Counted from the stretch's first letter, positions 3,981-47,094 are shown. The stretch: 47,773 nt of DNA from Desulfovibrio sp. (GCA_020060185.1 JAGVAS010000147.1:1-47773), one strand, 5' to 3'. The notes: generated by a model not told the origin, from the letters alone. Numbers and translations are program-made.

Positions 3981-4017
3981 GTAAATATAATTTTTTGTAG
4001 TTCAAGTATGGTTAATA

Positions 4018-4305
4018 ACAGTGAACGAGACTAGTAGCCCTCAAGCGGAGGTCCAGAGAGCCGGGGGAGGTGGAAGCCCGGTCCTAGCGCAGGTGGTGAA
4101 TGGACTCGAGAGTTGCAAAGACGAAAGGTGAAACCTGAGTAGTTTTTGCCGGAGTGAGCACCGTTAGCAGAGCTCAGGGTATCGTCCTCGGAAAGCCTGG
4201 GCCGTACCTGAAGGAGATGCCGGTGACTTTTGTTTTGCCGGCAATTAAGGTGGCACCGCGGAAGCAAGCCTCTCGCCCTTATTTGGGCAAGAGGCTTTTT
4301 AATTT
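4018..4305 (+). ncRNA. T-box riboswitch, Trp-specific
   Basis: AGTA and AGAGA motifs; specifier GAA-TGG (TGG 4101-4103); T-box AAGGTGGCACCGCG 4247-4260; terminator AAGCCTCTCGCCC/GGGCAAGAGGCTT plus T run. Confidence 0.93.
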
Positions 4306-4442: not shown

Positions 4443-5477
4443 ATGAAAGACATTTTACAGAAAATATCCAGAGGGCAAGAGCTGGGCCAATCTGAAATAG
4501 ATGACCTGATCTTTGGTATCAAAGAAGATCGTTTTTCCCAAACACAAATAGCAGGATTTCTGATGGCTCTCCTGATGAAAGGCCCTACAACCGGTGAGAT
4601 AGTCGCTATTGCCAGGGCCATGCGGAAAGCCTGTATTCCCATCAGCCCAAGAATTAATGCTGAATTGACCGATACCTGTGGGACAGGTGGCGGGCTTACC
4701 ACTTACAATGTCAGTAGCGCCAATGCACTGCTTTCAGCTGCCGCCGGCGTTAAGATTGCCAAGCACGGTTCTCGTTCTATTTCCGCTTCTTCGGGAAGCG
4801 CTGACGTTTTGGAAGCGCTGGGAATAGAAGTGGAGTTAGAACCCGGCCAGGCGGAAATGCTTATCGAAGAAGTTGGTTTTTCTTTCCTCTATGCCCCTCT
4901 TTTTCATCCGGTGATGATGAAAGTGTTTGCTCCGGAAAATGACCTGGGCATCAAAACCATTTTCTTTACCATCATCGGCCCCCTCATAAACCCTGCCAAT
5001 GCCAAAAGACATGTTCTCGGTGTTTACCAGCCCCAGCTGGTAGAACAGGTGGCCGAGGTAATAGCAGAGCTGGATTTTACCCATGCCATGGTTATTTACG
5101 GCCTTGATGGGGTTGACGAGATTTCACTTCTGGGAGAAACCAAAATAGCGGAAATTAAAGAAGGAAAGATAAAAAATTATACTATTACCCCGGAAGAATT
5201 TGGTATGAACCGCTGTACCATAGATCAGATCCAGGGGGGAAACCCTGAGTCCAACGCCAGGACTATTCTGGATATATTTAACGGGAAAGAGAAGGGCCCC
5301 AAACGGGATATGCTGCTGCTGAATGCGGGGGCTACGCTGGTGGTTGCAGGTAAGGCTTCTTCTCTGCACGAGGGAATAGCACAGGCTCAGGAGACTTTGG
5401 ATTCCGGTCAAGCTATGGCCAAGCTCATGGAGATTCGCAGTAGATCCCGGGAATTAAAGGGGGTAAGCGTGGGTTGA
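4443..5477 (+). CDS. trpD: Divergent anthranilate phosphoribosyltransferase-family enzyme (TrpD-like)
   Basis: DTCGTGG, GSADVLEALG, GPLINPA, GVDEIS retained; KHGS replaces KHGN and APEND replaces PARK. Confidence 0.88.
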   Translation: MKDILQKISRGQELGQSEIDDLIFGIKEDRFSQTQIAGFLMALLMKGPTTGEIVAIARAMRKACIPISPRINAELTDTCGTGGGLTTYNVSSANALLSAAAGVKIAKHGSRSISASSGSADVLEALGIEVELEPGQAEMLIEEVGFSFLYAPLFHPVMMKVFAPENDLGIKTIFFTIIGPLINPANAKRHVLGVYQPQLVEQVAEVIAELDFTHAMVIYGLDGVDEISLLGETKIAEIKEGKIKNYTITPEEFGMNRCTIDQIQGGNPESNARTILDIFNGKEKGPKRDMLLLNAGATLVVAGKASSLHEGIAQAQETLDSGQAMAKLMEIRSRSRELKGVSVG

Positions 5478-6223
5478 ACCTGCCGGAGTCTATAAGGCTT
5501 GCTCGATCCAGGGGGGTAGTCCCCATTGTTGCCGAGATAAAAAGGTTAATTCCCAAACTGGCAGCCGAGTATGGCCGGCCCCGCGATGAGCGGGAGGCCG
5601 GCCAGCTGGCCAGTTTGTACCAAACAGGTGGAGCTGCCGGGATTTCCCTTGTTACGGAACAGCAGCATTTTGGTGGAGAGCCCGAAAAAGACGTTCCTGC
5701 AGTCCTGCAGGCCACCTCTTTGCCCTTGCTTATCAAGGATTTTATCCTGGATTCCGCCAGGGTAGACTTTTATGCAGGGATTCTTGGAGGAATTGACCCC
5801 AGTTTTACCCGGAGGGCAACCTTGCTTCTTCATGCCCATATGCTTGGCGAGCAGCTCCCTGCCATGCTGGGGTACGTTTATTCCTGCGGGATGCACGCTC
5901 TCATTGAAACAAGGGGACCGCAAGATCTCCATTACCTGAGCAGGCTGGGTAGAAGAGCGCTAATGGTTGGCATAAATAACAAAAATATTGACGAGCTGGA
6001 AATGGGGAAAGATCAGGTACGCATAACTCCGGAGATTATCGCCGGCTACCGTGAGATGATAGGAGATGCTGTCATAATAAGCCAGAGCGCCCACCGGAGC
6101 ACGGCGGATATACGGCGTTCAATAGAGGCTGGAGCTGATGCGGTGCTGGTCGGTACCGCCTTAATGCTCTCCCGGGATCCTGCCGGGACGGTTTCCTCTT
6201 TTGTGCGGGCCGGAGGGGGTTAA
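5474..6223 (+). CDS. trpC: Divergent indole-3-glycerol-phosphate synthase-family enzyme (TrpC-like)
   Basis: AEIK, LVTEQQHFGG, KDFI, GINN, AVLVGTALM; lacks the N-terminal helix and the SPS motif. Confidence 0.8.
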   Translation: MNLPESIRLARSRGVVPIVAEIKRLIPKLAAEYGRPRDEREAGQLASLYQTGGAAGISLVTEQQHFGGEPEKDVPAVLQATSLPLLIKDFILDSARVDFYAGILGGIDPSFTRRATLLLHAHMLGEQLPAMLGYVYSCGMHALIETRGPQDLHYLSRLGRRALMVGINNKNIDELEMGKDQVRITPEIIAGYREMIGDAVIISQSAHRSTADIRRSIEAGADAVLVGTALMLSRDPAGTVSSFVRAGGG

Positions 6224-6224
6224 A

Positions 6225-6893
6225 ATGACCAGGGTGATGCTTTGTGGCAGCAGAAATGCTGGAGATATTCGCTTGATGGTGGAGGAGGGGGCCGATGCTA
6301 TCGGATTGATTACTGAGGTGAGGCAGGAAATCTCCTGCCGGCTTTCCCTTAAAGAGGCCCGGCATCTCTGTACCCTTATTCCACCTATGATATCCGGGAT
6401 CCTTATTCTTACCGAGGAACGGGAAGAAGAGGTATACCGAATGGTAAGATACGTTTGTCCCGATGCGGTGCAGCTGCATGGATTCAATACCCCTGAGGAT
6501 GTTGCTTTTCTGAGGAGGAAACTTAATAGCAAGATTATCAAAACCCTTCATTTCCAGGATGGTTGTATGGCAGAAGGAGGCAATCCTGAAGGCGTTGCCC
6601 TGGAGTACTTAAAAGCCGGGGCAGATGCTATCTTGCTGGACACTTACGGTGAAAGCAAATATGGATCGACCGGCAGGACCTTTGACTGGGATACTGCACG
6701 CCGTATAAGGGACGTGCTCTGGCCCAGGCCTCTTATTCTTGCCGGTGGTTTACATGTGGATAATGTGGCAGTGGCGTTGAGAGCAGTGCAGCCGTATGCA
6801 GTTGATGCCTTTAGTGCCGTCACTTCGGAAGGAAAACTGGATAGGGCAAAGGTACGGGATTTTATGGCAGCGGTAAGGCGATGCCAGCGGTAA
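6225..6893 (+). CDS. trpF: Phosphoribosylanthranilate isomerase (divergent copy)
   Basis: [30 protein letters not shown]. Confidence 0.85.
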
Positions 6894-6937
6894 TGGGGAA
6901 GTTTTTTCAAAACAGCAAAAGACAGGAGTGCATGCGC

Positions 6938-8125
6938 ATGGTACCGGATGAACGGGGTTATTTTGGAGAATTTGGCGGACGGTTTGTCCCCGAAGTGTTA
7001 ATTCCCGCCCTGGAAGAACTTACGGAGGCGTACCGGTGGGCCAAAGAAGATCCCGCCTTTCAGGAAGAACTTCACTGCTTATCAAGGTTCTGGTCGGGAC
7101 GCCCCACACCTCTTTATGAGGCGAAGCGCCTTAGCGAACTGCGGGGAGGCGCCCGCATTTACCTGAAACGGGAAGATCTTTTGCATACAGGAGCGCACAA
7201 GATCAACAATGCTTTAGGACAGGGGCTGCTGGCCAAAAAGATAGGGAAAAAACGCCTGGTGGCCGAAACAGGGGCTGGACAGCACGGTGTGGCTGTTGCC
7301 GCAGCCTCTGCCCTGCTGGGACTGCAATGTGTTGTTTATATGGGGGAAGAGGATGTTTACAGGCAGGCTCCCAACGTCAATCGCATGCAGCTTCTGGGGG
7401 CGGAAGTAAAAGCTGTTACCAGCGGAAGCAAAACCCTCAAAGATGCAATTAATGAAGCTATCCGCGACTGGGTGACTAATGTAAAGAGCACTTACTACCT
7501 GTTGGGTTCAGCTGTGGGACCGCATCCCTATCCCTTGATGGTACGGGAGTTCCAGGCAGTTATCGGGAGAGAAGCAAGGGAGCAGGTGCTGGCGTTAAGG
7601 GGCGCTTTGCCCGATTATGTTATAGCCTGTGTAGGCGGAGGTTCCAATGCGATAGGGATATTTTATCCTTTTTTAAACGATGTTCAGGTCAAGCTGGTAG
7701 GTGTGGAGGCGGGTGGCCAGGGGCTTGATAGCGGTAAACACGCTGCTTCCCTGGCGGCAGGAAAAGTTGGGGTGCTGCACGGGGCAAAGTCTTTTGTATT
7801 GCAGAATAAGGCCGGTCAGATTCAAGCCACTCACAGTATTTCCGCCGGACTGGATTACCCCGGCGTAGGCCCGGAACACAGTTATCTGAAAAATACCGGC
7901 CGTGCTCAATACGTGGTTGTGGAGGACAGTCAGGCTCTTCAGGCTTTCATGCTTCTCAGCAACACGGAGGGGATTATACCAGCTCTGGAGCCTGCTCATG
8001 CCATCGCTTATGCCCTTAACCTGGCCGGCTCCCTGGAGCAGGATCAGGCCATTGTCGTTAATCTCTCCGGCCGTGGAGACAAGGATATGGAGATCGTGAG
8101 CAAAATGCTGGAGGTGAAGCAATGA
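6938..8125 (+). CDS. trpB: Tryptophan synthase beta chain
   Basis: [52 protein letters not shown]; start placed after SD CAGGAG. Confidence 0.97.
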
Positions 8126-8910
8126 CGCACATCGCTTCTGTGTTTGCCGGAAAGGAACATGCCGCCCTTATTGCCTTTATTACGGTAGGCTATCCTACCC
8201 TTGAGGCCACGCTGGAGGCGGTACCGTTGCTGGAAAAATGCGGCGTCGATATGGTGGAGCTGGGCATCCCTTTCTCCGACCCGCTAGCTGACGGCATAAC
8301 CATCCAGCAGGCCAGCCAAAAAGCCCTGCAAAATGGAATTACACCGGCTGCCTGCCTGGAGGCTGCCCGCCTCATCAGGCAGAAGACGGATCTGCCCCTG
8401 CTCTTTATGACCTACTATAATCCCGTCCTTTGCTATGGTCCGGATCTTTTCTGCGCTGACTCTTTCCGTGCCGGTATCGACGGGCTAATCGTTCCGGATT
8501 TGCCCCTGGAGGAGGCCGGTCTTTTGGAAGAAATCACCTGCAGGAACAACCTGGATTTAATCTATCTTATTGCTCCTACCAGTCCCGAGGATCGCATCAG
8601 GCAGGCTGCACAGCGTTCGCGGGGATTTATCTACCTGGTCTCGGTCACAGGGGTTACCGGCATGAGGAAAGACCTTCCCGAAGGATCGGCCGGGTTTGCT
8701 GCCAGGGTCAAAAGATTTTCCGACAAGCCGTTATGCATGGGCTTTGGAATATCCACACCGCAGCAGGCGGCACTGGTGGCAGGCAGTGTGGACGGCGTCA
8801 TCGTCGGCAGCAGTATTGTCCATCTAATGGGCAGCCAAAGGGACTGGAAACCAGCCGTTTCCGAATTTGTTTGCTCTCTTAAAAAGGCCATAATGGAGAG
8901 CGGGAAGTAA
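8122..8910 (+). CDS. trpA: Tryptophan synthase alpha chain
   Basis: [33 protein letters not shown]. Confidence 0.97.
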
Positions 8911-8973: not shown

Positions 8974-9810
8974 TCACAAAAATGTTTGCCCGGCAAGGGG
9001 GTAGCTTCCTAGTATTTTTAAGAATAAAACTTTTTCTTTTATCTCCTTCAGTGCACGGGCAACTTTTGTATCTTTCCGGTGCCCTTCAACGTCCAGGAAA
9101 AATTTATATTTTCCCAGGTCGCCACGAACAGGGCGGGATTCTATTTTTGTGAGGTTAAGTTTATAGCGGGCAAAAATGCCAAGGGCCGAATATAAGCTTC
9201 CCGGCCTGTCATGCAACCCAATTAGTAAAGATGTTTTATCATTCCCCGTCCAGGGGGCGTCAGCCAGGGCGAGGAGCAGAAAACGGGTGATATTAGAGGG
9301 CTCATCCTGGATGTTCTCCTGGAGCACCTCCAGGCCGTAAAGCCAGGCAGCACGCCGGGAGGCAATAACGGCCTTTCCTTCGTTCTGGCTCGCCAGCGCA
9401 ACAGCTTCTGCAGTGCTGGCCATACTGATACGGGATGCTTCCGGGATGATTCTATCTAAATAGATACGGCACTGGGCCAGGGCCTGGGGATGGGAATAGA
9501 CCTCCTTGATCTTTGCAATTTCCTGTCCGGGGCGGGCAAGCAGGCAATGCTGTACTCTTAAGAGCAGCTCACCCTTTATCTTCACCGGGCTGTTTTTGGA
9601 TAAAAGGTCAAGGGTCAGGTTTACGGTTCCCTCCAGGGAGTTTTCCACCGGGACCACCCCCTGAACAACCTCTTTTTTTTCCACCGCAGTGAAAATCCGG
9701 TCCATAGTGGGGTAGGGTTTTGGCCGTAAAGATTGGCTGGTGCAATATCTTACCGCTAATTCCTCGCTAAAAGTTCCCGGCGGCCCCAGGTAGCCCAGCA
9801 AGTTTCTCAT
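8974..9810 (-). CDS. pheA: Prephenate dehydratase with ACT domain
   Basis: YLGPPGTFSE, PVENSLEG, SHPQALAQC, NITRF, NLTKIESRP. Confidence 0.95.
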   Translation of the reverse strand: MRNLLGYLGPPGTFSEELAVRYCTSQSLRPKPYPTMDRIFTAVEKKEVVQGVVPVENSLEGTVNLTLDLLSKNSPVKIKGELLLRVQHCLLARPGQEIAKIKEVYSHPQALAQCRIYLDRIIPEASRISMASTAEAVALASQNEGKAVIASRRAAWLYGLEVLQENIQDEPSNITRFLLLALADAPWTGNDKTSLLIGLHDRPGSLYSALGIFARYKLNLTKIESRPVRGDLGKYKFFLDVEGHRKDTKVARALKEIKEKVLFLKILGSYPLAGQTFL

Positions 9811-9855
9811 TCTTGTAACCTCCTTTCCTATGTACTTTTTAGGAAAGAAAAGAAT

Positions 9856-10923
9856 TTAGCTGCATACATGGACGAAGCAATCTGGTAAAGAGCTATTTGC
9901 CTGTTCCTGTAAGGTACGTCCACAGGCTGCTGCGATGCTTTGCAGTGATTTCATTAACAGGCAAAAATCCTTGATAGTTAGAGATTGATCGCCGTCGCAG
10001 TAAGCTTTTTGCGGTTCCGGGTGAACCTCTATTAAAAGGCCGTCGGCACCAGAGGCAATGGCAGCCCTGGAGAGAGCAGGAACCAGCTTGCTGTCTCCGC
10101 TGCTGTGGCTGGGATCCACCATCACGGGAAGGTGGCTCAAACTGTTAACAAGGGGTACGGCGCTGATATCCAGGGTGTTGCGGGTATAATGTTCAAAGGT
10201 GCGAATACCCCTTTCGCAGAGAATAACGTTAAAATTCCCGCCTGCAAGGATATATTCTGCAGACATAAGCCACTCCTCAATGGTTGCCGAAAAACCCCTT
10301 TTTAACAGTACCGGCTGCTTTTGTTTCCCCAGTTTTCTTAACAGGGGATAGTTGTGCATGTTGCGAGCACCTACCTGCAATATGTCAGCGTAAAAAGAAA
10401 CGAGCTCCACATCCTGGGGGGTTATCACCTCGGTAACGACTTTCAGCCCTGTCCTTTTCCTCGCCTCTGCCAGGAGCTTCAGCCCTTCTTCTTCGAGACC
10501 CTGGAAGCTGTAAGGTGATGTCCGGGGTTTAAAGGCTCCACCGCGCAGGATTTTTGCACCGGCTTCAGCAACTTTCTCGGCAATATTAAACAGCATTTCT
10601 TCATTCTCAACAGCGCAGGGGCCGGCCATTACAATGACTTCTTCACCCCCGATGGTTATTCCATTCCCCAGATCGACGATGCTTTTTTCTTTCTTAACTT
10701 CCCTGCTCACCAGTTTATAGGGGGTCTTTAATGGTACTACTTTTTCCACTCCTGGCAGCAGCAACAGGTTGGTTGACCCCTCGTGGTTTTTCCCGCCTGT
10801 GGCGTCGATAAGAATTTTTCCTGCACTTTTGATGATATGGCTGTGGTAACCCATATCTGTTATCTGTTTTTTTACCTTTTCGATTTCTTTCTCGGTAGCT
10901 TCCTGATTCATTACTAGAATCAC
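9856..10923 (-). CDS. aroF: DAHP synthase type I-beta with N-terminal ACT/ferredoxin-like domain (Phe-regulon copy)
   Basis: AGPCAVE, GGAFKPRTSPYSFQG, QVGARNM, LCERGIRTF, DPSH. Confidence 0.95.
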   Translation of the reverse strand: MILVMNQEATEKEIEKVKKQITDMGYHSHIIKSAGKILIDATGGKNHEGSTNLLLLPGVEKVVPLKTPYKLVSREVKKEKSIVDLGNGITIGGEEVIVMAGPCAVENEEMLFNIAEKVAEAGAKILRGGAFKPRTSPYSFQGLEEEGLKLLAEARKRTGLKVVTEVITPQDVELVSFYADILQVGARNMHNYPLLRKLGKQKQPVLLKRGFSATIEEWLMSAEYILAGGNFNVILCERGIRTFEHYTRNTLDISAVPLVNSLSHLPVMVDPSHSSGDSKLVPALSRAAIASGADGLLIEVHPEPQKAYCDGDQSLTIKDFCLLMKSLQSIAAACGRTLQEQANSSLPDCFVHVCS

Positions 10924-10949
10924 GCAACATCACTCCCCGCATAATTTTT

Positions 10950-10996
10950 TAAAAAAATAAGGTTTACACTAACAAAGGGACGAAAGTGTAAACCTT
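10950..10996 (-). terminator. Second terminator-like hairpin between the Phe T-box and aroF
   Basis: 12-bp perfect inverted repeat AAGGTTTACACT (10959-10970 / 10985-10996), followed on the minus strand by ATTTTTTT. Confidence 0.55.
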
Positions 10997-11000
10997 GTAA

Positions 11001-11305
11001 AATAAAAACTTCCTGTCCAGGGACAGGAAGTTGCTTCCGCGGTACCACCCTAGTTGGCTTTTTGCAAAGCCCACTTTTTCAGGAGCGGGACCTCTTTCGA
11101 GATCCGATTCCTGTTTCGTTGCTAACGGGTGAAAAACCCGGCACAGCTTACTTTTCCCGTATCATCGCTGAAGCGCAAACACGAGGTTTCAGCCTGCAGC
11201 TCCGGAGGGAACTTCGACCGGGTGCTTTTCCGGCAGGGCTTTCAGCCGCGGCCCCACCTCTCTGCAGCAAGCAATACCGGCTTACTTTCCTCTTTCAATG
11301 CTTTT
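11001..11305 (-). ncRNA. T-box riboswitch, Phe-specific
   Basis: Minus strand: AGTA and AGAGA motifs; specifier GAAG-TTC (11211-11209); T-box AGGGTGGTACCGCG (11051-11038); terminator AACTTCCTGTCC/GGACAGGAAGTT plus T run. Confidence 0.93.
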
Positions 11306-11328
11306 TGCCTGTTTTTAACTTTCTTGTT

Positions 11329-11357
11329 AGTTTAGCAAAAAAACTCTCCGGTGTCAA
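11329..11357 (-). promoter_or_regulatory. sigmaA promoter of the Phe T-box leader
   Basis: TTGACA-N17-TAAACT with TG extended -10 on the minus strand. Confidence 0.7.
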
Positions 11358-11548
11358 CAACTTTTTTACGGGCCCGGCCGGCCCTCAACCGGCCGCCCCT
11401 CCTGCAGAGGGGGTATTAATTATATCAAGGATGCTTTTCTGCTCTTTTCTTTTCCAGTCTTTCATTCTTGTGATAAAATTAGACCAGATTTCACGAAGCG
11501 ATGATTTTATAACCTTCCAGGAATAGCCATTTATGGGGGTGACAGGTA

Positions 11549-12064
11549 ATGGAAACTGAGAAAAGGCGTCGTGAGCTGTTAAAGCTCTTGCGTAAAGCAT
11601 CCAGGCCGCTTACAGGTGCAGAGCTGGCCAGCCACTTTAATGTAAGCCGGCAGGTTATTGTTCAGGATATTGCCATATTGAGAGCTTCAGGCGAGCAGAT
11701 CTTTGCCTCTCTCCAGGGATATCTGGTCCCTTCACGGCCACAGGAGAGCTGGGTGCGGGCTGTAGCAGCCTGCAGGCACACCCGGGAACAGATTGAAGAC
11801 GAATTGGGTATTGTCGTGGACCTGGGCGGCAGGGTCCTTGACGTGATCGTAGAACACCCTGTGTACGGGGAACTGCGGGGCAATCTGATGGTTGCCAGCC
11901 GTCGTGACTTGAGTTTATTTTTGGAGTCGCTGGATAAAACAGCAGCAAACCCGCTTTTGGCCTTAACGGGGGGCATCCACCTGCATACTCTCGAGGCACC
12001 AGATCAAAAGGTAATGGAAGAAATTACAGCAGCACTGGATAAGGCAGGATATCTTGTAAAATAG
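11549..12064 (+). CDS. niaR: Niacin-responsive repressor NiaR (HTH + 3H domain)
   Basis: VSRQVIVQDIAILRA, H..EDEL, VEHPVYGE, GIHLHT; directly upstream of nadABC. Confidence 0.93.
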   Translation: METEKRRRELLKLLRKASRPLTGAELASHFNVSRQVIVQDIAILRASGEQIFASLQGYLVPSRPQESWVRAVAACRHTREQIEDELGIVVDLGGRVLDVIVEHPVYGELRGNLMVASRRDLSLFLESLDKTAANPLLALTGGIHLHTLEAPDQKVMEEITAALDKAGYLVK

Positions 12065-12082
12065 CTTAAAAGCTGTGACTTT

Positions 12083-12115
12083 ACAATTGACAAGACAGGT
12101 TTGCAATGGCATAAT
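12083..12115 (+). promoter_or_regulatory. nadA sigmaA promoter overlapped by a NiaR-type operator
   Basis: TTGACA (12087)-N17-CATAAT (12110); ACAATTGACAAGACAGGTTT resembles the Firmicute NiaR palindrome ACAnnTGTCnnGACAnnTGT. Confidence 0.7.
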
Positions 12116-12151
12116 TAATTCAAGAAAAGCGGTTAAAGGGGTATCGGGAGG

Positions 12152-13066
12152 ATGGAAGAAGAGAAAAAGGCACTATTCCAAAGAATTCAGGAATTAAAAA
12201 GGAGGCACAACGCTGTTATCCTGGCGCACAACTACCAGAGCGAAGAGGTTCAAGATGCTGCTGACTTTGTCGGTGATTCTTTTGAACTCAGCCGGATAGC
12301 CGCACAGTCGGGGGCAGATGTGATTGTGTTTTGCGGTGTTTATTTCATGGCAGAGGTGGCGGCTATTCTGGCACCGGACAAGATCGTGCTGCTTCCCGAA
12401 ATCCTGGCCGGTTGCCCTCTCGCAGATATGATCACTTCAGAAACGCTCCGGGAAAAAAAGAAACAACACCCGGCTGCAATGGTAGTTACCTATATTAATT
12501 CCCCGGCGGTTGTTAAGGCGGATAGCGATATTTGTGTTACTTCATCCAATGCCGTTAGCGTGGTCAATTCCCTGGAAGCAGAAGAAGTTCTTTTTGTACC
12601 CGACATGAACCTGGGGAGCTTTGTTGCCGGGCAAACGGATAAACGCGTTATTCTATGGGACGGCTACTGTGTGACGCACCACCGTGTAAGGCCGGCTGAC
12701 GTAGCTGCCGCCAGGGCATCACATCCCGATGCCGTTGTAATGGTCCACCCGGAATGCCGTCCGGATGTAGTGAAAACTGCAGATTATGTTTTTTCAACCG
12801 GCGGGATGATAAAGTTTGCCCGGGAAACGGAACATAAAAAAATAATTGTTGGGACAGAGATGGGCTTAATTTACCGCCTGCAAAAAGAAAACCCCGATAA
12901 ACAATTTTATCTCCTTTCTCAGGGTTTAATTTGCCCCAACATGAAGTTTACCAACCTGGAAAAGGTTTATAAAGCACTGGAAACACTGCAGCCACGGATT
13001 ACCGTCCCCCAGCCCATTCGCGACCTTGCCCGCAGACCGCTTGAACTCATGCTGGTTGCAGTTTAA
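12152..13066 (+). CDS. nadA: Quinolinate synthase
   Basis: LAHNYQ, FCGVYFMAE, GCPLAD, YINS, HPEC, CPNMK. Confidence 0.96.
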   Translation: MEEEKKALFQRIQELKRRHNAVILAHNYQSEEVQDAADFVGDSFELSRIAAQSGADVIVFCGVYFMAEVAAILAPDKIVLLPEILAGCPLADMITSETLREKKKQHPAAMVVTYINSPAVVKADSDICVTSSNAVSVVNSLEAEEVLFVPDMNLGSFVAGQTDKRVILWDGYCVTHHRVRPADVAAARASHPDAVVMVHPECRPDVVKTADYVFSTGGMIKFARETEHKKIIVGTEMGLIYRLQKENPDKQFYLLSQGLICPNMKFTNLEKVYKALETLQPRITVPQPIRDLARRPLELMLVAV

Positions 13067-13074
13067 TAAAGGGG

Positions 13075-14685
13075 TTGGAGCGCTTGGTATATTTGAAACG
13101 GGAACATCCCTATGAATACGATGTAATAGTTGTCGGTAGCGGTATGGCAGGCCTGTTTGCTGCCATCAAAGCGGCGCGCTTTGCCCGTGTCTGTCTCTTG
13201 GCCAAGGATGCCCTGTCCAATACCAATACCTGGCTTGCACAGGGCGGCATCGCTGCTGCACTTGGAGATGATGACACTCCCGAGAGTCACCTGGAGGATA
13301 CCGTACAAGCAGGAGCCGGCTTGTGTAACCGCGAGGCCGTTAAAGTGATGGTGGAGGAGGGGCCACACCGCATAAAGGAACTCCTGGAGTTAGGTGTGCC
13401 GTTTGACCGGGTAGAGGGGCAACTGGCCATGACCAGGGAAGGGGCCCACAACAGGAATCGTATCGTTCATGCCGGAGGCGATGCTACCGGGCAGGTTCTT
13501 CATGAAACTTTGCAAAACCATTTGCTTAACAACAGGGCGATTGCTGTCCGGGAATACACTTTTGTTACAGATTTGTTAACCTGTGAAGGACAGGTCACCG
13601 GCCTAAAAACTTTGAGGGGAGAAACCTACCGTGCCGGGGCAGTGATCCTTGCCACGGGAGGGCTGGGCAGGGTTTTTTTCTGCACGACAAACCCGGAGGT
13701 TGCTACGGGAGATGGCGTGGCCATGGCGTTCCGTGCCGGGGCGGAAGTTGTCGATATGGAGTTTATCCAGTTTCATCCCACTGTTTTTCAGAGTCCAAAG
13801 GGAGAAATGATCCTGATTTCAGAGGCAGTGCGTGGTGAAGGGGCGGTGCTCCGGAATTCTCGTGGTAAACGGTTTATGGATAAATACCACGAGATGGCCG
13901 AACTTGGCCCGCGGGATATAGTGGCCCGTGCTATCGTGGATCAAATGAAAAAACAGGGGAGCAGGTGCGTTTACCTTGATGTTACGCTCCGGGATCCCGT
14001 TTTTCTTAAAAGTCGTTTTCCCACAATATATGGTATGGCCTCGAAATACGGTCTGGACCTGGCAAAGGACTGGCTCCCCGTTAGTCCTGCAGCACATTAT
14101 GCTATGGGCGGTGTGCATACAGGCCTGGACGGGGAGACAAATCTGGCCGGTCTTTACGCTTGCGGCGAGGTTGCCTGCAGCGGGGTACATGGAGCCAATC
14201 GTTTGGCCAGCAATTCCCTGTTGGAGGGGCTTGTTTTTGCCGGGCGCGTCGTGGAGCGGATTGAAAAAACCGGGAAAAAACTTCCGGGTACTCTGCAGCA
14301 AAAATATAAAAGTAATTATAGCCCCAAAAAACTTTCCTTAAAATTCGCGCGTGGAAAAAAACTGCAGGATGAACTCCGCAGGTTAATGTTCAGCAAAGCG
14401 GGCATCCTCCGCCACGAGAAAGGTCTTTTAGCAGTACAGCGTTTCCTCAAGCAGCATGCCTGGCTTGTAGATGCGGTACCGGAAGACCGGGCAGCATGGG
14501 AGCTAAAAAACCTGTTTGTTGTGGCCAACCTCATTGTTAACAGTGCATTTATGCGTACTGAAAGCCGCGGCAGCCATTACCGGGTAGATTACCCGCAGCC
14601 TGATGAAGCGTGGCGCTTGCGCCACCTGTCCCGGTCGGCAAAGGGAAAAAAGGAGGAAGATTTGCTTGCACCGCTTAGTTTATAA
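13075..14685 (+). CDS. nadB: L-aspartate oxidase
   Basis: GSGMAG, AQGGIAA, REGAH, QFHPT, SEAVRGEG, HGANRLASNSLLEG. Confidence 0.95.
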   Translation: MERLVYLKREHPYEYDVIVVGSGMAGLFAAIKAARFARVCLLAKDALSNTNTWLAQGGIAAALGDDDTPESHLEDTVQAGAGLCNREAVKVMVEEGPHRIKELLELGVPFDRVEGQLAMTREGAHNRNRIVHAGGDATGQVLHETLQNHLLNNRAIAVREYTFVTDLLTCEGQVTGLKTLRGETYRAGAVILATGGLGRVFFCTTNPEVATGDGVAMAFRAGAEVVDMEFIQFHPTVFQSPKGEMILISEAVRGEGAVLRNSRGKRFMDKYHEMAELGPRDIVARAIVDQMKKQGSRCVYLDVTLRDPVFLKSRFPTIYGMASKYGLDLAKDWLPVSPAAHYAMGGVHTGLDGETNLAGLYACGEVACSGVHGANRLASNSLLEGLVFAGRVVERIEKTGKKLPGTLQQKYKSNYSPKKLSLKFARGKKLQDELRRLMFSKAGILRHEKGLLAVQRFLKQHAWLVDAVPEDRAAWELKNLFVVANLIVNSAFMRTESRGSHYRVDYPQPDEAWRLRHLSRSAKGKKEEDLLAPLSL

Positions 14686-15493
14686 AGATATTGTGGCAAA
14701 TGCTTTAGCCGAAGACCTTGGTTCTGGCGACTGGACCACGAGCAGTATCTTTACCGGGGAAGAGGGAAAAGCTTTTATTGTAGCCAAAGAAGCAGGCGTT
14801 TTGGCCGGGCTGCCTGTGGCGGAAGAAGTGTATGCCCAGGTTGACACGAGGGTACATTTTAGGACGAATTTTCAGGATGGCAGCAAAATAAATGGCGGCG
14901 ATTGTGTTGCTACCCTGGAAGGGCCTGTAGCCGGTATCCTTATGGGCGAGCGCGTGGCTCTTAACTTCCTGCAGAGAATGTCGGGAGTTGCCACGGCGAC
15001 AAGGGCTGCTGTAGAAAGTGTTCACGGCACCAGGGCCAAAATTACCGATACGCGCAAAACAGCTCCCGGATTGCGCCTTCTCGATAAGTACGCGGTGCGC
15101 GTTGGCGGAGGGGTAAACCACCGTTTTAACCTTGCTGATATGGTGTTGATCAAGGATAACCATATCCGGGGAGCCGGCTCTATCCGCGAGGCAGTGGCCC
15201 GGGTCAGGCGGCACTGCGGTTTCCCCGTAAAAATTGAGGTAGAGACAGAAACGCTTGATGAGGTCAGGGAGGCGGTGGCTTGTGGCGTGGAAATCATTAT
15301 GCTGGACAATATGACTACAAGCCGGATGGCTGAAGCAGTTAGCTTGATAGCGGGGCGAGCACTGGTTGAAGCCTCGGGAGGAATCTCCAGGGAACGGCTG
15401 CCTGAAGTGGCTGCTACCGGTGTGGATTTAATTTCCCTTGGTTATTTGACAAACAGCAGTCGTGTACTGGATTTGTCGTTAAAATTAGGTTAG
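14666..15493 (+). CDS. nadC: Quinolinate phosphoribosyltransferase
   Basis: ERVALNFLQRMSG, DTRKTAPG, NHRFNL, IKDNH, MLDNM, EASGG; TTG start after SD AGGAGG. Confidence 0.95.
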   Translation: MHRLVYKDIVANALAEDLGSGDWTTSSIFTGEEGKAFIVAKEAGVLAGLPVAEEVYAQVDTRVHFRTNFQDGSKINGGDCVATLEGPVAGILMGERVALNFLQRMSGVATATRAAVESVHGTRAKITDTRKTAPGLRLLDKYAVRVGGGVNHRFNLADMVLIKDNHIRGAGSIREAVARVRRHCGFPVKIEVETETLDEVREAVACGVEIIMLDNMTTSRMAEAVSLIAGRALVEASGGISRERLPEVAATGVDLISLGYLTNSSRVLDLSLKLG

Positions 15494-15551
15494 AAACTCC
15501 AAGGAAAAGCATCATCGAAACAGCGCATGAGCGGATGGAGAAAAAAATTTC

Positions 15552-15580
15552 TTGACATGAAGCGTTCAGGAGTATAAAAT
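15552..15580 (+). promoter_or_regulatory. sigmaA promoter of the Tyr T-box leader
   Basis: TTGACA-N17-TAAAAT. Confidence 0.75.
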
Positions 15581-15609
15581 ATTTTCTAATCAGTTAAATT
15601 AAACAAAAA

Positions 15610-15900
15610 ATCGATGACGGGGAGAAGTAGGCACGACGATAGGCTGCAGAGAGCCGGGGGATGGTGTGACCCGGTGCCATCAACTGCTGAAATACACCCC
15701 TGAGAAGCAAACCAAAAGCCTTTGCTTTACTTGAGCGGCCAGTAGGCTTTGACGGAAACTCCCACCGTTAAAAGGGAGGGGGTATAATGCTGGAACACAA
15801 CACCAGTCCGTACCCTGAAAAGAGGGGGGCATTTATGTCCAACCAGGGTGGTACCGCGTGAAGATAGAACTTCCGTCCCTATGGGGAGGGAAGTTTTTTT
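15610..15900 (+). ncRNA. T-box riboswitch, Tyr-specific
   Basis: AGTA and AGAGA motifs; specifier GAAA-TAC (15693-15695); T-box AGGGTGGTACCGCG 15845-15858; terminator AACTTCCGTCCCT/GGGAGGGAAGTT plus T run. Confidence 0.93.
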
Positions 15901-15903
15901 AGT

Positions 15904-16162
15904 ATGAAAATGGGGTGACGCAAAGCTGGTGCTCGCTCCAAGTTCAGCTGGAGCCAAGTTCTACAGCTCAGCTCAAGACTCCGATGACTTTCCCAGGAGA
16001 GCTCGCCTCCTACTCGCCTCCTGGCTGCTGGCGTCCATGCCGGCAGGGCCATCTCCAAACTTCGCTTCAACATGAGCTTTTATCTTCGCTGCACAAGTCG
16101 CTCGCTACAACCTTGTGCCACCTGTACGGAACATAGTGCGGATTAGAAGCCATCATTTTCAT
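15904..16162. repeat. Putative REP/MITE-like non-coding insert in the aroF 5' leader
   Basis: Terminal inverted repeats ATGAAAATG / CATTTTCAT; internal repeated CTCGCT/TTCGCT motifs and GGCGTCCATGCC hairpin; no credible ORF. Confidence 0.45.
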
Positions 16163-16223
16163 CCATTGTTGTGGACCGCAGGGCCCTGGCCGTTAGTATT
16201 AAAAATTAAAAGGAGGATGTTTT

Positions 16224-17237
16224 ATGATCGTTGTTATGGATTCCGGTGCCGGTGAAGAGGAAATCGGGGAGGTAGAAAAGAGAATCAAAAGTTTTGGCTA
16301 TGACGTGCACCGTTCCAACGGCGTGAACTGTACTATCCTGGGCGCTATCGGCTACCCCAGGGAAGATGTCAGGGATGCTCTGGAGGTAATGCCTTCCGTG
16401 GAAAAAGTAGTGCTGGTTTCACACCCTTTTATGCTGGTAAGCAGGGAGTTTAAGAAGGATAAGACTGCGTTTAAGGTGGGAGAGGTGGAAATCGGAGGCG
16501 AAAAAATTGTCCTGATGGCCGGGCCGTGTGCAGTAGAAGGAAGGGAATCTTATCTTCAAGCCGCTGAAGCTGTAAAAAAAGGGGGAGCGGATATTTTAAG
16601 AGGAGGGGCATATAAGCCTCGCACTTCTCCTTACAGTTTTCAGGGCCTGGAGGAAGAGGGTTTAAAAATCATGGCAGAGGCCAGGGAAATGACCGGACTT
16701 CCCATCATAACAGAAGTTCTGGACCAGCACTCTATTGAAATTGTGGTCCGCTATGCCGATATCATCCAGGTGGGGACACGCAACATGCAAAACTTTAAAC
16801 TGCTTAGAGAACTGGGACAAATAAATAAGCCCGTTTTGATAAAAAGGGGGATGTCAGCGACGATTGAAGAATGGTTGATGGCAGCAGAGTATCTTCTCAG
16901 CAGCGGAAACTACCAGGTCATCCTCTGTGAAAGGGGAATACGGACGTTTGAAACATATACCCGCTATACCATGGATATCAGTGCTATTCCCATAGTAAAA
17001 GAGTTAAGCCATTTGCCGGTATTTGTAGACCCAAGCCACGGTACCGGGAAGTGGAAATGGGTGCCTTCCATGAGCCTGGCTGCGGTAGCGGCAGGTGCTG
17101 ATGGCCTTCTGGTAGAAGTACACCCCTCCCCCAAGGAGGCGCTTTGTGATGGCCCTCAATCGCTGGTTCCGGAAAAATATTCACAGATGATCGGTTCATT
17201 GAGGGGAGTGGCACAGATAATTGGCCGGACGCTGTAA
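16224..17237 (+). CDS. aroF: DAHP synthase type I-beta (Tyr-regulon copy)
   Basis: AGPCAVE, GGAYKPRTSPYSFQG, LCERGIRTF, DPSHGTG. Confidence 0.95.
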   Translation: MIVVMDSGAGEEEIGEVEKRIKSFGYDVHRSNGVNCTILGAIGYPREDVRDALEVMPSVEKVVLVSHPFMLVSREFKKDKTAFKVGEVEIGGEKIVLMAGPCAVEGRESYLQAAEAVKKGGADILRGGAYKPRTSPYSFQGLEEEGLKIMAEAREMTGLPIITEVLDQHSIEIVVRYADIIQVGTRNMQNFKLLRELGQINKPVLIKRGMSATIEEWLMAAEYLLSSGNYQVILCERGIRTFETYTRYTMDISAIPIVKELSHLPVFVDPSHGTGKWKWVPSMSLAAVAAGADGLLVEVHPSPKEALCDGPQSLVPEKYSQMIGSLRGVAQIIGRTL

Positions 17238-18093: not shown

Positions 18094-18104
18094 CCGGCGG
18101 TGTT

Positions 18105-18247
18105 CAAGCCATAGCGATCATCGTATTGCCATGGCCCTGGCCATTGCTGCCCTTTTTGCCAGGGGCGAAACAGTTATTGAAGGAATCGAACCGGTACAGG
18201 TTTCTTTTCCCGGGTTTTTTGAGCTTTTACAAAGTCTAACCGCTTAG
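18105..18247 (+). pseudogene. aroA: C-terminal remnant of EPSP synthase
   Basis: [16 protein letters not shown]...VSFPGFF matches the AroA C-terminus; only about 46 codons, no start; usual aroA position after tyrA. Confidence 0.88.
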
Positions 18248-18334
18248 CCCTAAATATAATAGAAGGGGGGTAAGGGCAGGGAGACTTGGCGGTGCCATGG
18301 AGATGATACTGCTAAGGTGGCCTGCCTTCTGGAG

Positions 18335-20703: not shown

Positions 20704-20725
20704 TCATTCCAATTAAAGAAGTAAA

Positions 20726-21055
20726 TCCAATGGTGGGGAAGAGTAAGTAAAGGGGATTTTCACAGAGAGCCGGCAGCTGGTGGGAATCCGGTAAAAGGCT
20801 CCTTTACTGAATGGGCCCCTGAGGAAAGGACCGAACGCTGCAGCTAAAGGCATCCAGTAGGCTCCTGCGGAGAGTCTTACCGTTAAAAGAGACAGGGTAT
20901 TGGAGAAAGAAACCTGTGCGGTAGCGGTATCACCGCTCCCGTAAAATAGGGGACTGAAAGTACCTGGAAGGGGAAACCGTAATTAAATTTTTTTACGGTT
21001 TAACTAAGGTGGCACCGCGGAGAAGCCTTCCGTCCTTAAGACGGAAGGCTTTCCT
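20726..21055 (+). ncRNA. T-box riboswitch, Trp-specific
   Basis: AGTA and AGAGA motifs; specifier GAA-TGG (20812-20814); T-box AAGGTGGCACCGCG 21006-21019; terminator AAGCCTTCCGTC/GACGGAAGGCTT. Confidence 0.93.
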
Positions 21056-21102
21056 AATTATATTAGTTATATTGATTATGGTTGGAAAGCGAGGTGTGGC
21101 AG

Positions 21103-23227: not shown

Positions 23228-23254
23228 ATACCCGGGGATATTACCGGGTAATAA

Positions 23255-24304
23255 ATGATCAAAGATATCCTGGAAAAGTTGATCCGTCACGAAGATTTAA
23301 CCTGTGAAGAGGCCTACCAGGTCATGGGAAAGATCATGAGAGGTGAATTTAAAGAGGCCCAGGTTGCCGCTTATCTCGTAGCGCTTCGTTGTAAAGGAGA
23401 GACTGTTGATGAAATAATGGGGAGCTGCCAGGCCATTCGCGAGCACAGCATTAAAATTTCCGTTACAAGAACTCCCGTGGTGGATACCTGCGGTACCGGG
23501 GGAGACGGCAAGGGGAGCTTTAACATTTCTACGGTAAGCGCCTTTGTTTCCGCCGGGGCCGGGATAACGGTTGCCAAGCACGGAAACAGGGCTGTTTCCG
23601 GGCAGTGCGGGAGCGCAGACCTCTGTGAAGCTTTGGGTATAAATATGGAGTTGCCTGCTACGGATCTAGAGCTTTGCCTTAATGAAATTGGCCTGGGATT
23701 TTTATATGCACCGTCATTGCACCCGGCTATGGCCCATGCACTCCCGGCGAGAAAAGCCCTGGGGTTGCGGACCATCTTTAATATCCTGGGTCCCTTGAAT
23801 AACCCGGCAGGAGCAAAAAGGCAGGTGCTGGGGATTTACGAGGCAGCGTTGACGGAGAAAATGGCAGCGGTCTTAGCCTCTCTTGGTTCCGAGCATGCCC
23901 TGGTGGTGGCCGGTAGGGATGGTCTGGACGAAATTACACTTACGGCAGAGACTTTAGTTACCGAGGTGAAAAACGGGATATTGCGAAGCTATCTTATTGC
24001 ACCGGAAGATTTTGGTTTTTCCAGGGTTTCGATGGATTCGCTGCTGGGTGGGGATGCTGTAGCAGGCACCCGTTCCTGTTTAGCGATACTGAAGGGGGAA
24101 AAAGGGCCGCAGCGGGATGTGGTTCTACTGAATGCAGGAGCGGCTTTGTACGTTTCTGGACTGGTACAGAGTATCAGGGAAGGCATTGAGCTGGCCAAAA
24201 CCTCTATTGATTCGGGAGCGGCTTACGAAAAACTTCAGTCCCTGGTACAGTTTTCCCGGTGCCGGAAACTGCCTGCTGCAGAAGGGGGAAGAACTTATGC
24301 TTAA
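23255..24304 (+). CDS. trpD: Anthranilate phosphoribosyltransferase (canonical)
   Basis: DTCGTGGDG, FNIST, KHGNR, HPAM...PARKALGLRTIFN, GLDEIT. Confidence 0.96.
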   Translation: MIKDILEKLIRHEDLTCEEAYQVMGKIMRGEFKEAQVAAYLVALRCKGETVDEIMGSCQAIREHSIKISVTRTPVVDTCGTGGDGKGSFNISTVSAFVSAGAGITVAKHGNRAVSGQCGSADLCEALGINMELPATDLELCLNEIGLGFLYAPSLHPAMAHALPARKALGLRTIFNILGPLNNPAGAKRQVLGIYEAALTEKMAAVLASLGSEHALVVAGRDGLDEITLTAETLVTEVKNGILRSYLIAPEDFGFSRVSMDSLLGGDAVAGTRSCLAILKGEKGPQRDVVLLNAGAALYVSGLVQSIREGIELAKTSIDSGAAYEKLQSLVQFSRCRKLPAAEGGRTYA

Positions 24305-25106
24305 AGAGATCGCCGTCCATAAATGGAGAGAGGTCATCAAGCAGAAAAAAGAATATCCCCTGCAGGAAATAATCAAACAACTGCCTTCGCTCCCTTCTCC
24401 AGGGAACTTTAAGGAGGCGCTTCTCAAGCGTTTTCCGCAGGTTGGTATTATCGCGGAGATTAAAAAAGCCTCCCCCTCTGGCGGGGTGATTGAATCTCAT
24501 TTTACAAGGGATAAAAGCCCGGCGGAAATCGCTCTTTTGTATGAAGAAGGCGGAGCGGTGGCGATATCTGTGCTCACAGAAGCAAGATACTTTGCCGGCT
24601 GCCCCGCAGACCTGCGCAGCGCCAAAAGTGCTGTAAGCATACCTGTTCTCCGCAAGGATTTTATCGTGGATGAGTACCAGATTTATGAATCCAGGGCCAT
24701 GGGGGCAGATGCTGTCCTGCTTATCGCCTCCCTGCTTGCCATTGCGGAGCTGAAAAGATTTTTGCAGCTGCTGGGCGAGCTGGGAATGGCTGCCATAGTG
24801 GAAGCAGGGAAAAAGGAAGATATTCTTAAGGCGGTTCAGGCCGGGGCGGAGGTAATAGGTATCAATAACCGCAACCTCCATACCATGGAAATTGACCTTA
24901 CGAGGACTCTTGAATGGGGTCCTTATGTTCCCCGTGACAGGGTTTTAATTTCGGAGAGCGGCATCTACTGCCGGGAGCAGGTGCAACAGTTAAAAGAGTT
25001 GAGCGGCGTGAATGCTGTCCTTGTTGGTAACAGCCTTATGACCAGCGGCGATCCTGCTGCAAAAATAAGGGAGCTGATGGGCGAAGATGTGCCCTGTGCG
25101 CGTTAA
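24297..25106 (+). CDS. trpC: Indole-3-glycerol-phosphate synthase (canonical)
   Basis: AEIKKASPS, LRKDFI, GADAVLLI, GINNRNL, SESGI. Confidence 0.96.
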   Translation: MLKEIAVHKWREVIKQKKEYPLQEIIKQLPSLPSPGNFKEALLKRFPQVGIIAEIKKASPSGGVIESHFTRDKSPAEIALLYEEGGAVAISVLTEARYFAGCPADLRSAKSAVSIPVLRKDFIVDEYQIYESRAMGADAVLLIASLLAIAELKRFLQLLGELGMAAIVEAGKKEDILKAVQAGAEVIGINNRNLHTMEIDLTRTLEWGPYVPRDRVLISESGIYCREQVQQLKELSGVNAVLVGNSLMTSGDPAAKIRELMGEDVPCAR

Positions 25107-25782
25107 GGTCTGCGGTATCCGCACTCCCCGGGAGGCCCTGGCAGCCGTGGAAGAAGGTGTTCATGCCCTGGGATTTCTCTTTGCCTCCAGCCCGCGCCAG
25201 GTAACCCCCGAAATAGCCGCAGCTATTATTAAGGAACTGCCTCCTTTTATTGGGAAGGTGGGCGTTTTTGTTAACGAAGAAAGCGGGAAGGTAAAGGAGA
25301 TTGCCGCTTATTGCGGGCTGGACACCCTGCAGTTTCACGGCGAGGAGACAGCGGCGTATTGCTGCCAGTTTCCCGCTTATAAGGTTATCAAAGCTTTTCC
25401 TGCCTCTCCCTCTTTATCCATGGAAAGGTGCCGGGAATACCGGGTCAGTGCTATTTTGCTGGATACTAAATATGCAGGTAAGAAGGGCGGAGGAGGCCTG
25501 GCCTTCGATTGGCGGCTGGCCCAACCTTTTTGTCAAGGGCCTTTTCCTCTCGTACTTGCCGGGGGATTAAATGAGGACAACGTTTTTAATGCTCTTGAAG
25601 TGGTAAAACCTTTCGGGGTCGATGTGAGCAGCGGTGTGGAAAGAAATGGCTTTAAAGATCAAAAAAGAATAAGGGCCCTTATGGAACAAATTAAGAGGTG
25701 GGAATACCAGCATTTATTTTGTTATAATAAAAGAGTGACCCGTGTGTCAGGTAGTCTAGAGCCGGAGAAAACTCATTTCTAA
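25087..25782 (+). CDS. trpF: Phosphoribosylanthranilate isomerase (canonical)
   Basis: VKVCGI, SPRQV, VGVFVN, QFHGEE, LLDT, LAGGL, DVSSGVE. Confidence 0.95.
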   Translation: MCPVRVKVCGIRTPREALAAVEEGVHALGFLFASSPRQVTPEIAAAIIKELPPFIGKVGVFVNEESGKVKEIAAYCGLDTLQFHGEETAAYCCQFPAYKVIKAFPASPSLSMERCREYRVSAILLDTKYAGKKGGGGLAFDWRLAQPFCQGPFPLVLAGGLNEDNVFNALEVVKPFGVDVSSGVERNGFKDQKRIRALMEQIKRWEYQHLFCYNKRVTRVSGSLEPEKTHF

Positions 25783-46764: not shown

Positions 46765-47094
46765 ACCTTACAGTTATTTTATATGAAAAATTCCTTAGTA
46801 AAAGTCTGTTGAGCTGGGTGGTTGTACAACGATTGTCAATTTCTTCTGAAATTCTATCGAAAAAAATCATGTTCTTTTTGCTAAAGAAACTATTAAAAAA
46901 TATGAATAAAAAAACTATTCATTCTCTAGCCAATATATCATATTTTAAGAAAAATTTCACTTGAAAATTGTTCTGCATTCTGCATTCTGTATTTATTATT
47001 TAAAAGCTTTCTCTAAAAAGTGCCCAAATCAGGAATCTTGACAAATTTATACATAATATGATAAAACATTATTATAAAACAAAGAAAATATAAA

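Follow-up and report, generated by a model that had tools for sequence, protein, structure and literature searches.

A divergent trpD-trpC-trpF module in a Desulfovibrio tryptophan operon as a possible anthranilate-synthase-independent branch to indole-3-glycerol phosphate

The steps that lead from anthranilate to indole-3-glycerol phosphate (IGP) are textbook chemistry, and IGP synthase (IGPS) is classed as a decarboxylase. In a 47,773-nucleotide stretch of DNA from Desulfovibrio sp. (GCA_020060185.1, JAGVAS010000147.1:1-47773; this whole stretch is called the window below) the enzymes for these steps are encoded twice, once by canonical trpD, trpC and trpF genes and once by a divergent set, here called trpD', trpC' and trpF', which shares an operon with trpBA. 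TrpD' and TrpF' belong to conserved classes that have other residues at the positions by which the canonical enzymes hold the anthranilate carboxylate, and these classes are associated with genomes that lack anthranilate synthase. We propose with moderate confidence that trpD'C'F' forms an anthranilate-synthase-independent branch from an arylamine to IGP and that its substrate is bound differently from anthranilate. The window belongs to contig C11 in a metagenome-assembled genome (MAG) of 2.47 Mb, which consists of 200 contigs and is 89% complete.

The module opens a five-gene operon on the plus strand. It begins with trpD' (4443..5477), which encodes a TrpD-family phosphoribosyltransferase of a KHGS/Glu165 class (TIGR01245, 366.1 bits against a cut-off of 199.05), and continues with trpC' (5474..6223), encoding an IGPS-like (beta-alpha)8 barrel without helix alpha0 (PF00218, 103.6 bits), and trpF' (6201..6893), encoding an isomerase resembling phosphoribosylanthranilate isomerase (PRAI) with Cys at the position of Arg36 and Thr at that of Glu184 (PF00697, 80.7 bits). 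The last two genes are trpB (6881..8125; TIGR00263, 621 bits) and trpA (8122..8910; TIGR00262, 257 bits). The five reading frames overlap or abut, and they lie behind a T-box leader at 4012..4283 on the same strand (RF00230, 116.2 bits against a gathering score of 93) with the tryptophan specifier UGG, in the context GAA-UGG-A.

The canonical genes follow further downstream, again on the plus strand, behind a second UGG leader at 20721..21040 (RF00230, 107.8 bits against 93; GAA-UGG-G). The operon trpEGDCF occupies 21082-25782 and is followed by aroE and aroK. The trpE (21082-22608) and trpG (22589-23227) genes encode a canonical anthranilate synthase, which gives the genome its own match to PF00425. 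The canonical trpD (23255..24304; TIGR01245, 408.7 bits) has KHGN, the Arg and GTGGD. Next comes trpC (24132..25106; NF001377, 285.6 bits against 260), which matches PF00218 over profile positions 1-254; its listed reading frame begins within trpD, and the Pfam match starts at residue 57, placing the true start near 24297. The canonical trpF (25087..25782; PF00697, 146.9 bits) has both Arg36 and Glu184 in an alignment to 1lbm. A preliminary description of this DNA, made from the sequence alone, had reported two complementary Trp T-box operons with D, C and F duplicated, and this account holds: the reading frames and both UGG leaders are present, and a profile search of the genome found two TrpD, two IGPS and a single trpB above the family cut-off. 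The trpBA pair is thus confined to the first operon, D, C and F being duplicated and BA not. A TrpB2-like protein encoded elsewhere in the genome (G000:C97:1324-2352) scores 142 bits on the trpB model, below its cut-off.

TrpD' and its canonical paralogue in the window share 45% identity. The motifs for phosphoribosyl pyrophosphate (PRPP) and Mg2+ are present in TrpD' as the GTGG loop, KHG, GSAD and an Asp-Glu pair; their roles in anthranilate phosphoribosyltransferase (AnPRT) are taken from the available part of PMC9835598, and here as elsewhere residue roles are transferred from papers on canonical enzymes. TrpD' departs from the canonical enzyme at every site listed in the preliminary description, namely in KHGS (Ser110), in Glu165 within APEND, in KTIFFT and in GTGG-G, where a one-residue deletion removes the Asp of GTGGD. 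That description had also named the canonical Asn and Arg as anthranilate-binding residues, which agrees with the available part of PMC9835598: in the Mycobacterium tuberculosis enzyme, R193 and N138 are the residues that bind the anthranilate carboxylate in the catalytic site. Ser110 and Glu165 of TrpD' align with N138 and R193, respectively, so that the canonical carboxylate-holding Asn and Arg are both absent.

These states define a class. We chose class positions blind, as those that are uniform within the D'-linked class and uniform, with another residue, within the canonical class, and the comparison of 40 D'-type with 23 canonical TrpD proteins returned nine of them. Position 110 is Ser in 40/40 D'-type proteins and Asn in 23/23 canonical ones, and position 165 is Glu in 40/40 and Arg in 23/23, a reversal of charge. 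The other seven are an inserted Phe174 and Thr176, Ile178, His190, Phe279, Ala100 and Ile113, which replace Asn, Leu, Gln, Leu, Gly and Val of the canonical class. KHGS together with the Glu was found in all of the 120 best TrpD' homologues listed. The search for a solved structure of the D' class gave none, the best match in the Protein Data Bank being 9ucw (277 bits), which has KHGN and the Arg. TrpD' shares the glycosyltransferase family 3 fold with the DNA-binding TrpD2/YbiB proteins; membership of that group was considered and rejected, since TrpD' reaches 366 bits on the TrpD model but no more than 47 on that of YbiB and keeps the PRPP motifs. Several D'-class proteins of about 448 residues (P0212, P0214, P0223, P0230 and P0237-P0240) carry an N-terminal Lrp/AsnC ligand-binding (RAM) domain, which may be an allosteric sensor; their hosts are Desulfobacterales, Syntrophales and a scaly-snail endosymbiont that has two D'-class genes.

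The second enzyme of the module is altered at a corresponding point. TrpF' is 32% identical to the canonical TrpF of the window and scores 80.7 bits on PF00697 against a threshold of 22.7, and it falls short of all NCBIfam equivalog cut-offs, the best score being 136 against 215. Its AlphaFold model is confident (pLDDT 89), with 1nsj and 1lbm as top structural matches (TM-score 0.86-0.87). Catalytic Cys7 and Asp126 are kept and the motif MLCG is present, as the preliminary description had it; the most telling change, Arg36 to Cys, had been missed there. In Thermotoga maritima numbering, Arg36 is the sole canonical-invariant residue lost in D'-linked TrpF, where the position is Trp in 17/31 and Cys in 14/31 proteins, against Arg in 15/16 canonical ones. 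The window's TrpF' has Cys at 36 and Thr at 184, and among 119 non-self TrpF' homologues 100 have Cys36 and no Glu184, whereas all 15 with Arg have the Glu. The remaining homologues, three with Asn at both positions and one with Asp/Lys (P0350, P0356, P0359 and P0358), are further variants of the Arg36-Glu184 pair. According to the available parts of two papers on PRAI, Arg36 is salt-bridged to the carboxylate of the bound analogue rCdRP (reduced 1-(2-carboxyphenylamino)-1-deoxyribulose 5-phosphate; PMC2667513) and shields Glu184 from the anthranilate carboxylate (PMC9088769). Full-text searches of a limited literature collection returned no description of a KHGS/Glu class of TrpD or of a Cys/Trp36 class of TrpF.

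TrpC' is 31% identical to its paralogue in the window. It matches PF00218 with 103.6 bits against 27, over profile positions 40-250, and remains under all NCBIfam equivalog cut-offs, with 128 against 284 at best. The AlphaFold model (pLDDT 94) most closely matches IGPS structures (TM-score 0.73-0.80); the best target TM-score, 0.86, is to 2c3z, an N-terminally truncated variant of the Sulfolobus solfataricus enzyme. The N-terminal lid helix alpha0 is absent, as shown by the start of the Pfam match at profile position 40 and by a model with one short N-terminal helix. In the TrpC' family of 15 related genomes the match starts at profile positions 18-77 in 14, and the copy of the remaining genome (G014) is split into two pieces. 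In S. solfataricus numbering, catalytic Glu51, Lys53, Lys110, Glu159 and Asn180 are kept.

The window's TrpC' has the motifs IPK, NNK and QSA, which together with the missing N-terminal helix had been listed in the preliminary description and are all found in the sequence. Two of these motifs do not extend to the class. QSA (E210Q) occurs in 7/15 closest TrpC' relatives only and is a sub-clade trait, and NNK is found only in the window's TrpC' family and in one further locus (L024). Lys170 stands in the window at the position of Arg182, which touches carboxylate and phosphate, and Gln204 at that of Glu210, but most D'-linked TrpC retain the Arg and the Glu, with NNR and ESx, and TrpC therefore retains an Arg or Lys at this position, which may still touch carboxylate and phosphate. 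The expected co-occurrence of the D' clade with a QSA-type TrpC accordingly stands in part: D' always lies beside a non-canonical TrpC and TrpF, but the QSA type is not general. The changes shared more widely are others. Ser58 is replaced by Lys in 25/33 D'-linked TrpC, by Arg in 6/33 and by Gly in 2/33; Leu184 is Ile in 33/33; and the Leu of the SVLTE strand is Val. The Lys or Arg at position 58 lies in loop beta1-alpha1, over the aromatic ring, and is often followed by Glu or Asp; it is a candidate base.

In the branch that we propose, TrpD' would transfer the phosphoribosyl group from PRPP to an aromatic amine, TrpF' would carry out the Amadori isomerisation of the product, and TrpC' would close the ring. 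The result would be IGP, which we infer to be the product of the module and which would feed the genome's only tryptophan synthase, encoded in the same Trp T-box operon. The branch would run parallel to the chorismate route through trpEGDCF, with both operons induced by uncharged tRNA-Trp. The replaced carboxylate holders would be, in TrpD, the Asn changed to Ser, the Arg changed to Glu and the lost Asp of GTGGD and, in TrpF, the lost Arg36/Glu184 pair; in TrpC the loss of the lid helix and the new Lys or Arg in loop beta1-alpha1 would be part of the re-tooling. Because the carboxylate-holding residues are replaced, the physiological substrate is probably, to judge from the residue states, something other than anthranilate held in the canonical mode. 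An arylamine of the aniline type, free of a carboxylate, is the simplest candidate, and with it TrpC' would be a non-decarboxylating IGP synthase. The preliminary description had put forward aniline, aminophenol or diamine types as hypothetical substrates. The link of the module to tryptophan is favoured by the adjacency of trpBA, the UGG T-boxes and the catalytic residues of IGPS and PRAI, which are kept.

We found the module well beyond Desulfovibrio, and the isolates Pelotomaculum terephthalicicum JT, Desulfotomaculum sp. 1211_IL3151 and Desulfatitalea alkaliphila are among its carriers. TrpC' has about 115 relatives of 43-82% identity, all of about 250 residues and with the same motifs. 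Among contigs representing one genome per species, 15 loci carry the TrpC' family (at least 48% identity, the next matches reaching at most 37%); in 14 of these the three genes D', C' and F' lie side by side, and the fifteenth begins inside C'. A search for the same pattern added 28 loci, from Clostridia, Desulfobacterota, Chloroflexota and Actinomycetota, in which a D'-type TrpD has a non-canonical TrpC and TrpF as neighbours. All 43 loci were fetched through TrpC' patterns and form a biased sample, and the genomes are MAGs. The trpBA pair adjoins the module in 23/43 loci, in the order D'C'F'BA or BA-D'C'F'; the module has no adjacent trpBA in the other 20, mostly from Desulfobacterota and Actinomycetota, some of which stop at a contig edge, where absence is not shown. 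In none of the 42 loci in which D' is seen does trpEG directly precede it. When 70 TrpD-like proteins were placed in a tree, all 40 rows of the D' type fell on one side of a branch with a support of 100 (Shimodaira-Hasegawa-like approximate likelihood ratio test), so that the predicted Ser110/Glu165 clade without trpEG directly before it is borne out. Canonical TrpC (25 rows) is split from D'-linked TrpC by a branch with a support of 99, and the window's C' and F' each fall inside a 15-row clade with a support of 100. A test in Actinobacteria, by which the absence of a canonical trpF would point to a dedicated F', was not clean, as 4/5 genomes have a second PRAI-like gene.

A trivial explanation would be that the module consists of duplicates under relaxed selection that are drifting towards pseudogenes, as the scores of TrpC' and TrpF' below all NCBIfam equivalog cut-offs might suggest. 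The conservation data already refute this, and we give it almost no credence. The frames are intact, the structure models of TrpC' and TrpF' are confident, and the same signature is found in more than 100 homologues of each protein. Ratios of nonsynonymous to synonymous substitution rates (dN/dS), calculated against the two nearest loci, are 0.09 for D', 0.21-0.23 for C' and 0.11-0.19 for F', and the range of 0.09-0.23 is not above that of the canonical genes (trpB 0.12, trpA 0.14-0.19, canonical E, G, D and C 0.13-0.24). We rejected relaxed selection on the strength of dN/dS and homologue conservation; the substitutions, whose lack of conservation would have spoken against the preliminary description, are conserved, with Ser110/Glu165 in all of the 120 best homologues listed and in 40/40 proteins from the loci. 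The module D'C'F' is old, well kept and under purifying selection, with no decay.

We then asked which genomes carry the module. The 43 module genomes comprise 24 with a PF00425 enzyme and a canonical TrpD, 18 with neither, and one (G011) with a fused TrpE(G) only. Because this set is biased and made up of MAGs, in which gene absence is weak evidence alone, we also counted a second sample of 400 genomes of the window's phylum, each at least 90% complete, calling D' at an identity of at least 56% (other TrpD matches reached at most 47%). D' was found in 13/400 genomes. In eight of the 13, D' is accompanied by a second TrpD and by a PF00425 enzyme; the other five, 93-99% complete, have D' only and no PF00425 match. 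All five have chorismate synthase and a trpB match, which is above the cut-off in four. In the fifth, G117 (95% complete, 9 contigs), trpB is broken up over several frames (G117:C1:1111544-1112696), owing either to damage to the gene or to frameshift errors in long reads. Among the genomes with canonical TrpD only, 2/218 lack a PF00425 match, both of them fragmented assemblies with a KHGN TrpD. The difference between 5/13 and 2/218 gives a Fisher p of 5e-6, which is overstated, since related genomes are not independent. No genome of the 400 combines an anthranilate synthase with D' as its sole TrpD. Taken over both samples, the module stands beside canonical D-C-F in 32 genomes (24/43 and 8/13), and the upkeep of three genes there is easiest to read as distinct intermediates that converge on IGP.

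Several observations weigh against a non-anthranilate substrate, in addition to the sampling bias and the overstated p value. TrpD' lies well over the cut-off of the curated AnPRT model TIGR01245. D'-linked TrpC keep Lys53, Lys110, Glu159, Asn180 and Arg182 (Lys in the window), and through the last of these one carboxylate contact appears to survive. The TrpF' clade of the window, having lost both Arg36 and Glu184, would have a neutral pocket that could still take phosphoribosylanthranilate. Since TrpE and canonical TrpD are encoded in one operon, their joint occurrence is to some extent forced. The MAG G011 has a fused anthranilate synthase together with D'C'F'BA and neither canonical D nor C. 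No conserved accessory neighbour, such as a transporter or an amine-forming enzyme, was found beside the module in the 43 loci, where the most shared neighbour family after D, C, F, A and B is a response regulator (6/43 loci). To our knowledge there is no plausible natural source of aniline. Finally, no T-box was detected at E<=0.01 before the D'C'F'-only operon of Pelotomaculum terephthalicicum (L013), so that the T-box link rests on operons that also hold trpBA.

Much of this would fit another explanation, namely that D'C'F' is a divergent old lineage of ordinary anthranilate-to-IGP enzymes that bind anthranilate, supplied by TrpEG or by uptake, in another mode. On this view the trpEG-less genomes would belong to tryptophan auxotrophs of the 'A3' kind that salvage anthranilate, and D, C and F would be redundant in the genome of the window. 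We consider this a strong competitor, though somewhat less likely than the branch proposed here. It is favoured by the score of 366 bits against 199 on TIGR01245, the full set of catalytic residues with Arg182 or Lys retained in TrpC, a window TrpF' pocket that is neutral rather than negative, the gene content of G011, and the want of an aniline source and of a linked amine-forming or transport gene. The presence of trpBA solely in the D' operon also points this way, as the two operons then read as halves of one pathway. In the available part of PMC9026213, pathways with A, B, C, D and F but without trpEG are read as anthranilate salvage in 38 gut genomes. What this explanation leaves unaccounted for is that the class-defining changes fall exactly on the carboxylate ligands of two enzymes, with the charge reversed at one of them, and that three genes are held under purifying selection beside canonical D-C-F in 32 genomes. 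It also sits badly with the lack of any genome in the 400-genome sample that pairs a synthase with D' alone and with the rarity of canonical-only pathways without a synthase (2/218).

The fused TrpE(G) of G011 (L097:763-2958) has 731 residues, is of the 'clade 3' type (TIGR01815, 973 bits) and is encoded directly after a gene for DAHP (3-deoxy-D-arabino-heptulosonate 7-phosphate) synthase. Its hosts are Syntrophomonadaceae-like genomes (G011; G343:C7; G390:C18). In G343 and G390, relatives of G011 that are 99% complete, the fused synthase lies near canonical D-C-F, and there is in addition a separate A-D'-C-F' block. We considered the fused enzyme as a dedicated partner of D' and rejected this, since among the 43 genomes and the window's own it exceeds the TIGR01815 cut-off only in G011.

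The 'A3' gut variant resembles the module in having a D, C, F, B, A operon without E and G and in that many carrier genomes are synthase-less (PMC9026213, available part). The window's own genome also holds trpEGDCF and so falls outside the synthase-less definition of that variant, within which 18/43 and 5/13 of our genomes fall. The available part of PMC9026213 mentions no distinct class or residue signature of TrpD, TrpF or TrpC, whereas in the phylum sampled here the synthase-less state goes with the D' class and not with the canonical one. Compared with canonical TrpD, TrpF and TrpC, the module is alike in families, folds, PRPP/Mg2+ motifs and catalytic residues and in lying beside trpBA; it differs in Ser and Glu in TrpD, Cys or Trp at position 36 of the PRAI-like enzyme, the missing alpha0, Lys or Arg at 58 and Ile at 184 in TrpC, and in never being placed directly after trpEG. 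The trpDCFBA recapture operons of chlamydiae are likewise partial pathways without trpEG.

We also considered that IGP may not be the product of the module, which could instead make, for instance, a different heterocycle or a cofactor precursor, its adjacency to trpBA being secondary. The 20/43 loci without trpBA (some of them at a contig edge) and the missing T-box of L013 would fit this, as would the fact that these TrpC and TrpF classes are also found alongside a TrpD-like protein of a third kind, together with a RibD_C reductase and a molybdopterin oxidoreductase. Yet the module is joined to trpBA in 23/43 loci, UGG T-boxes are present in eight leaders (that of the window's trpD' and seven related ones), BA and D'C'F' stay one block in synthase-less genomes, and the catalytic set of IGPS is intact. 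We regard a product other than IGP as improbable. The third module type is found in L027, L031, L034, L035, L058 and L064 (for example L034:3465-9413), in Desulfobacterota, NC10, Lentisphaerae and unclassified MAGs. Its genes are arranged in the order IGPS-like, PRAI-like (with Trp at Arg36), RibD_C reductase (PF01872), TrpD-like and molybdopterin oxidoreductase, and its TrpD-like protein has MHGLD/THGEN instead of KHGN. It may have a role outside tryptophan synthesis.

For an arylamine-to-IGP branch there is a laboratory counterpart. In the available part of PMC7681013, aniline is converted in vitro through phosphoribosylaniline and PAdRP (1-(phenylamino)-1-deoxyribulose 5-phosphate) to IGP by the same three reaction types that we propose for D', F' and C', without decarboxylation. 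One AnPRT accepts aniline, PRAI had to give way to a HisA mutant for the decarboxylated substrate, and canonical IGPS (of Pseudomonas aeruginosa) turns that substrate into IGP about 1000-fold more slowly, a base being needed in place of the loss of CO2 (PMC7681013, available part). By analogy, dedicated D', F' and C' enzymes are what an aniline-type route would require, and the need for a non-PRAI isomerase in vitro would fit a dedicated F'. The in vitro route is a weak side activity of canonical enzymes, and no natural pathway is described in that part of the paper, whereas D'C'F' is known here from sequence. In its strongest form our proposal would make the module a natural tryptophan route, widespread in anaerobes and not starting from anthranilate, in which TrpD' would ribosylate an aniline-type arylamine free of a carboxylate, or some other amine without an ortho carboxylate, TrpF' would isomerise the product and TrpC' would close the indole ring by deprotonating instead of decarboxylating; the candidate base would be Lys/Arg58 of loop beta1-alpha1 together with the acidic residue after it. 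Organisms that have chorismate synthase and lack a chorismate-binding (MST-type) enzyme could then make tryptophan from an amine, possibly an endogenous one. So specific a version we think unlikely.

The window as a whole is an aromatic amino-acid supercluster with four T-box leaders (RF00230, with specifiers read from Rfam alignments). Besides the two tryptophan leaders, a phenylalanine (UUC) leader on the minus strand (11016-11307) stands before genes for DAHP synthase and pheA, and a tyrosine (UAC) leader at 15605-15883 precedes DAHP synthase, tyrA, aroC and aroB. The region 8974-20626 holds two paralogous DAHP synthases, each under a different T-box. Together, the Phe, Tyr and two Trp leaders amount to end-product-specific control of the common pathway. 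A c-di-GMP-I-GGC riboswitch aptamer lies at 47093-47176 (62.6 bits against a gathering score of 59).

What is added here, beyond an old and widespread gene block, are the residue classes and the association with synthase-less genomes: a three-enzyme set without the carboxylate-binding residues, conserved across several phyla, is the version found in genomes that lack the synthase. If the substrate is still anthranilate, these proteins would represent a second structural way to bind it, and current family models of TrpD, TrpF and TrpC under-call or mis-rank them. If it is not, the module would give tryptophan synthesis a second natural starting point, and the predicted 'tryptophan auxotrophy' of many anaerobes of the gut, of digesters and of the subsurface would change.

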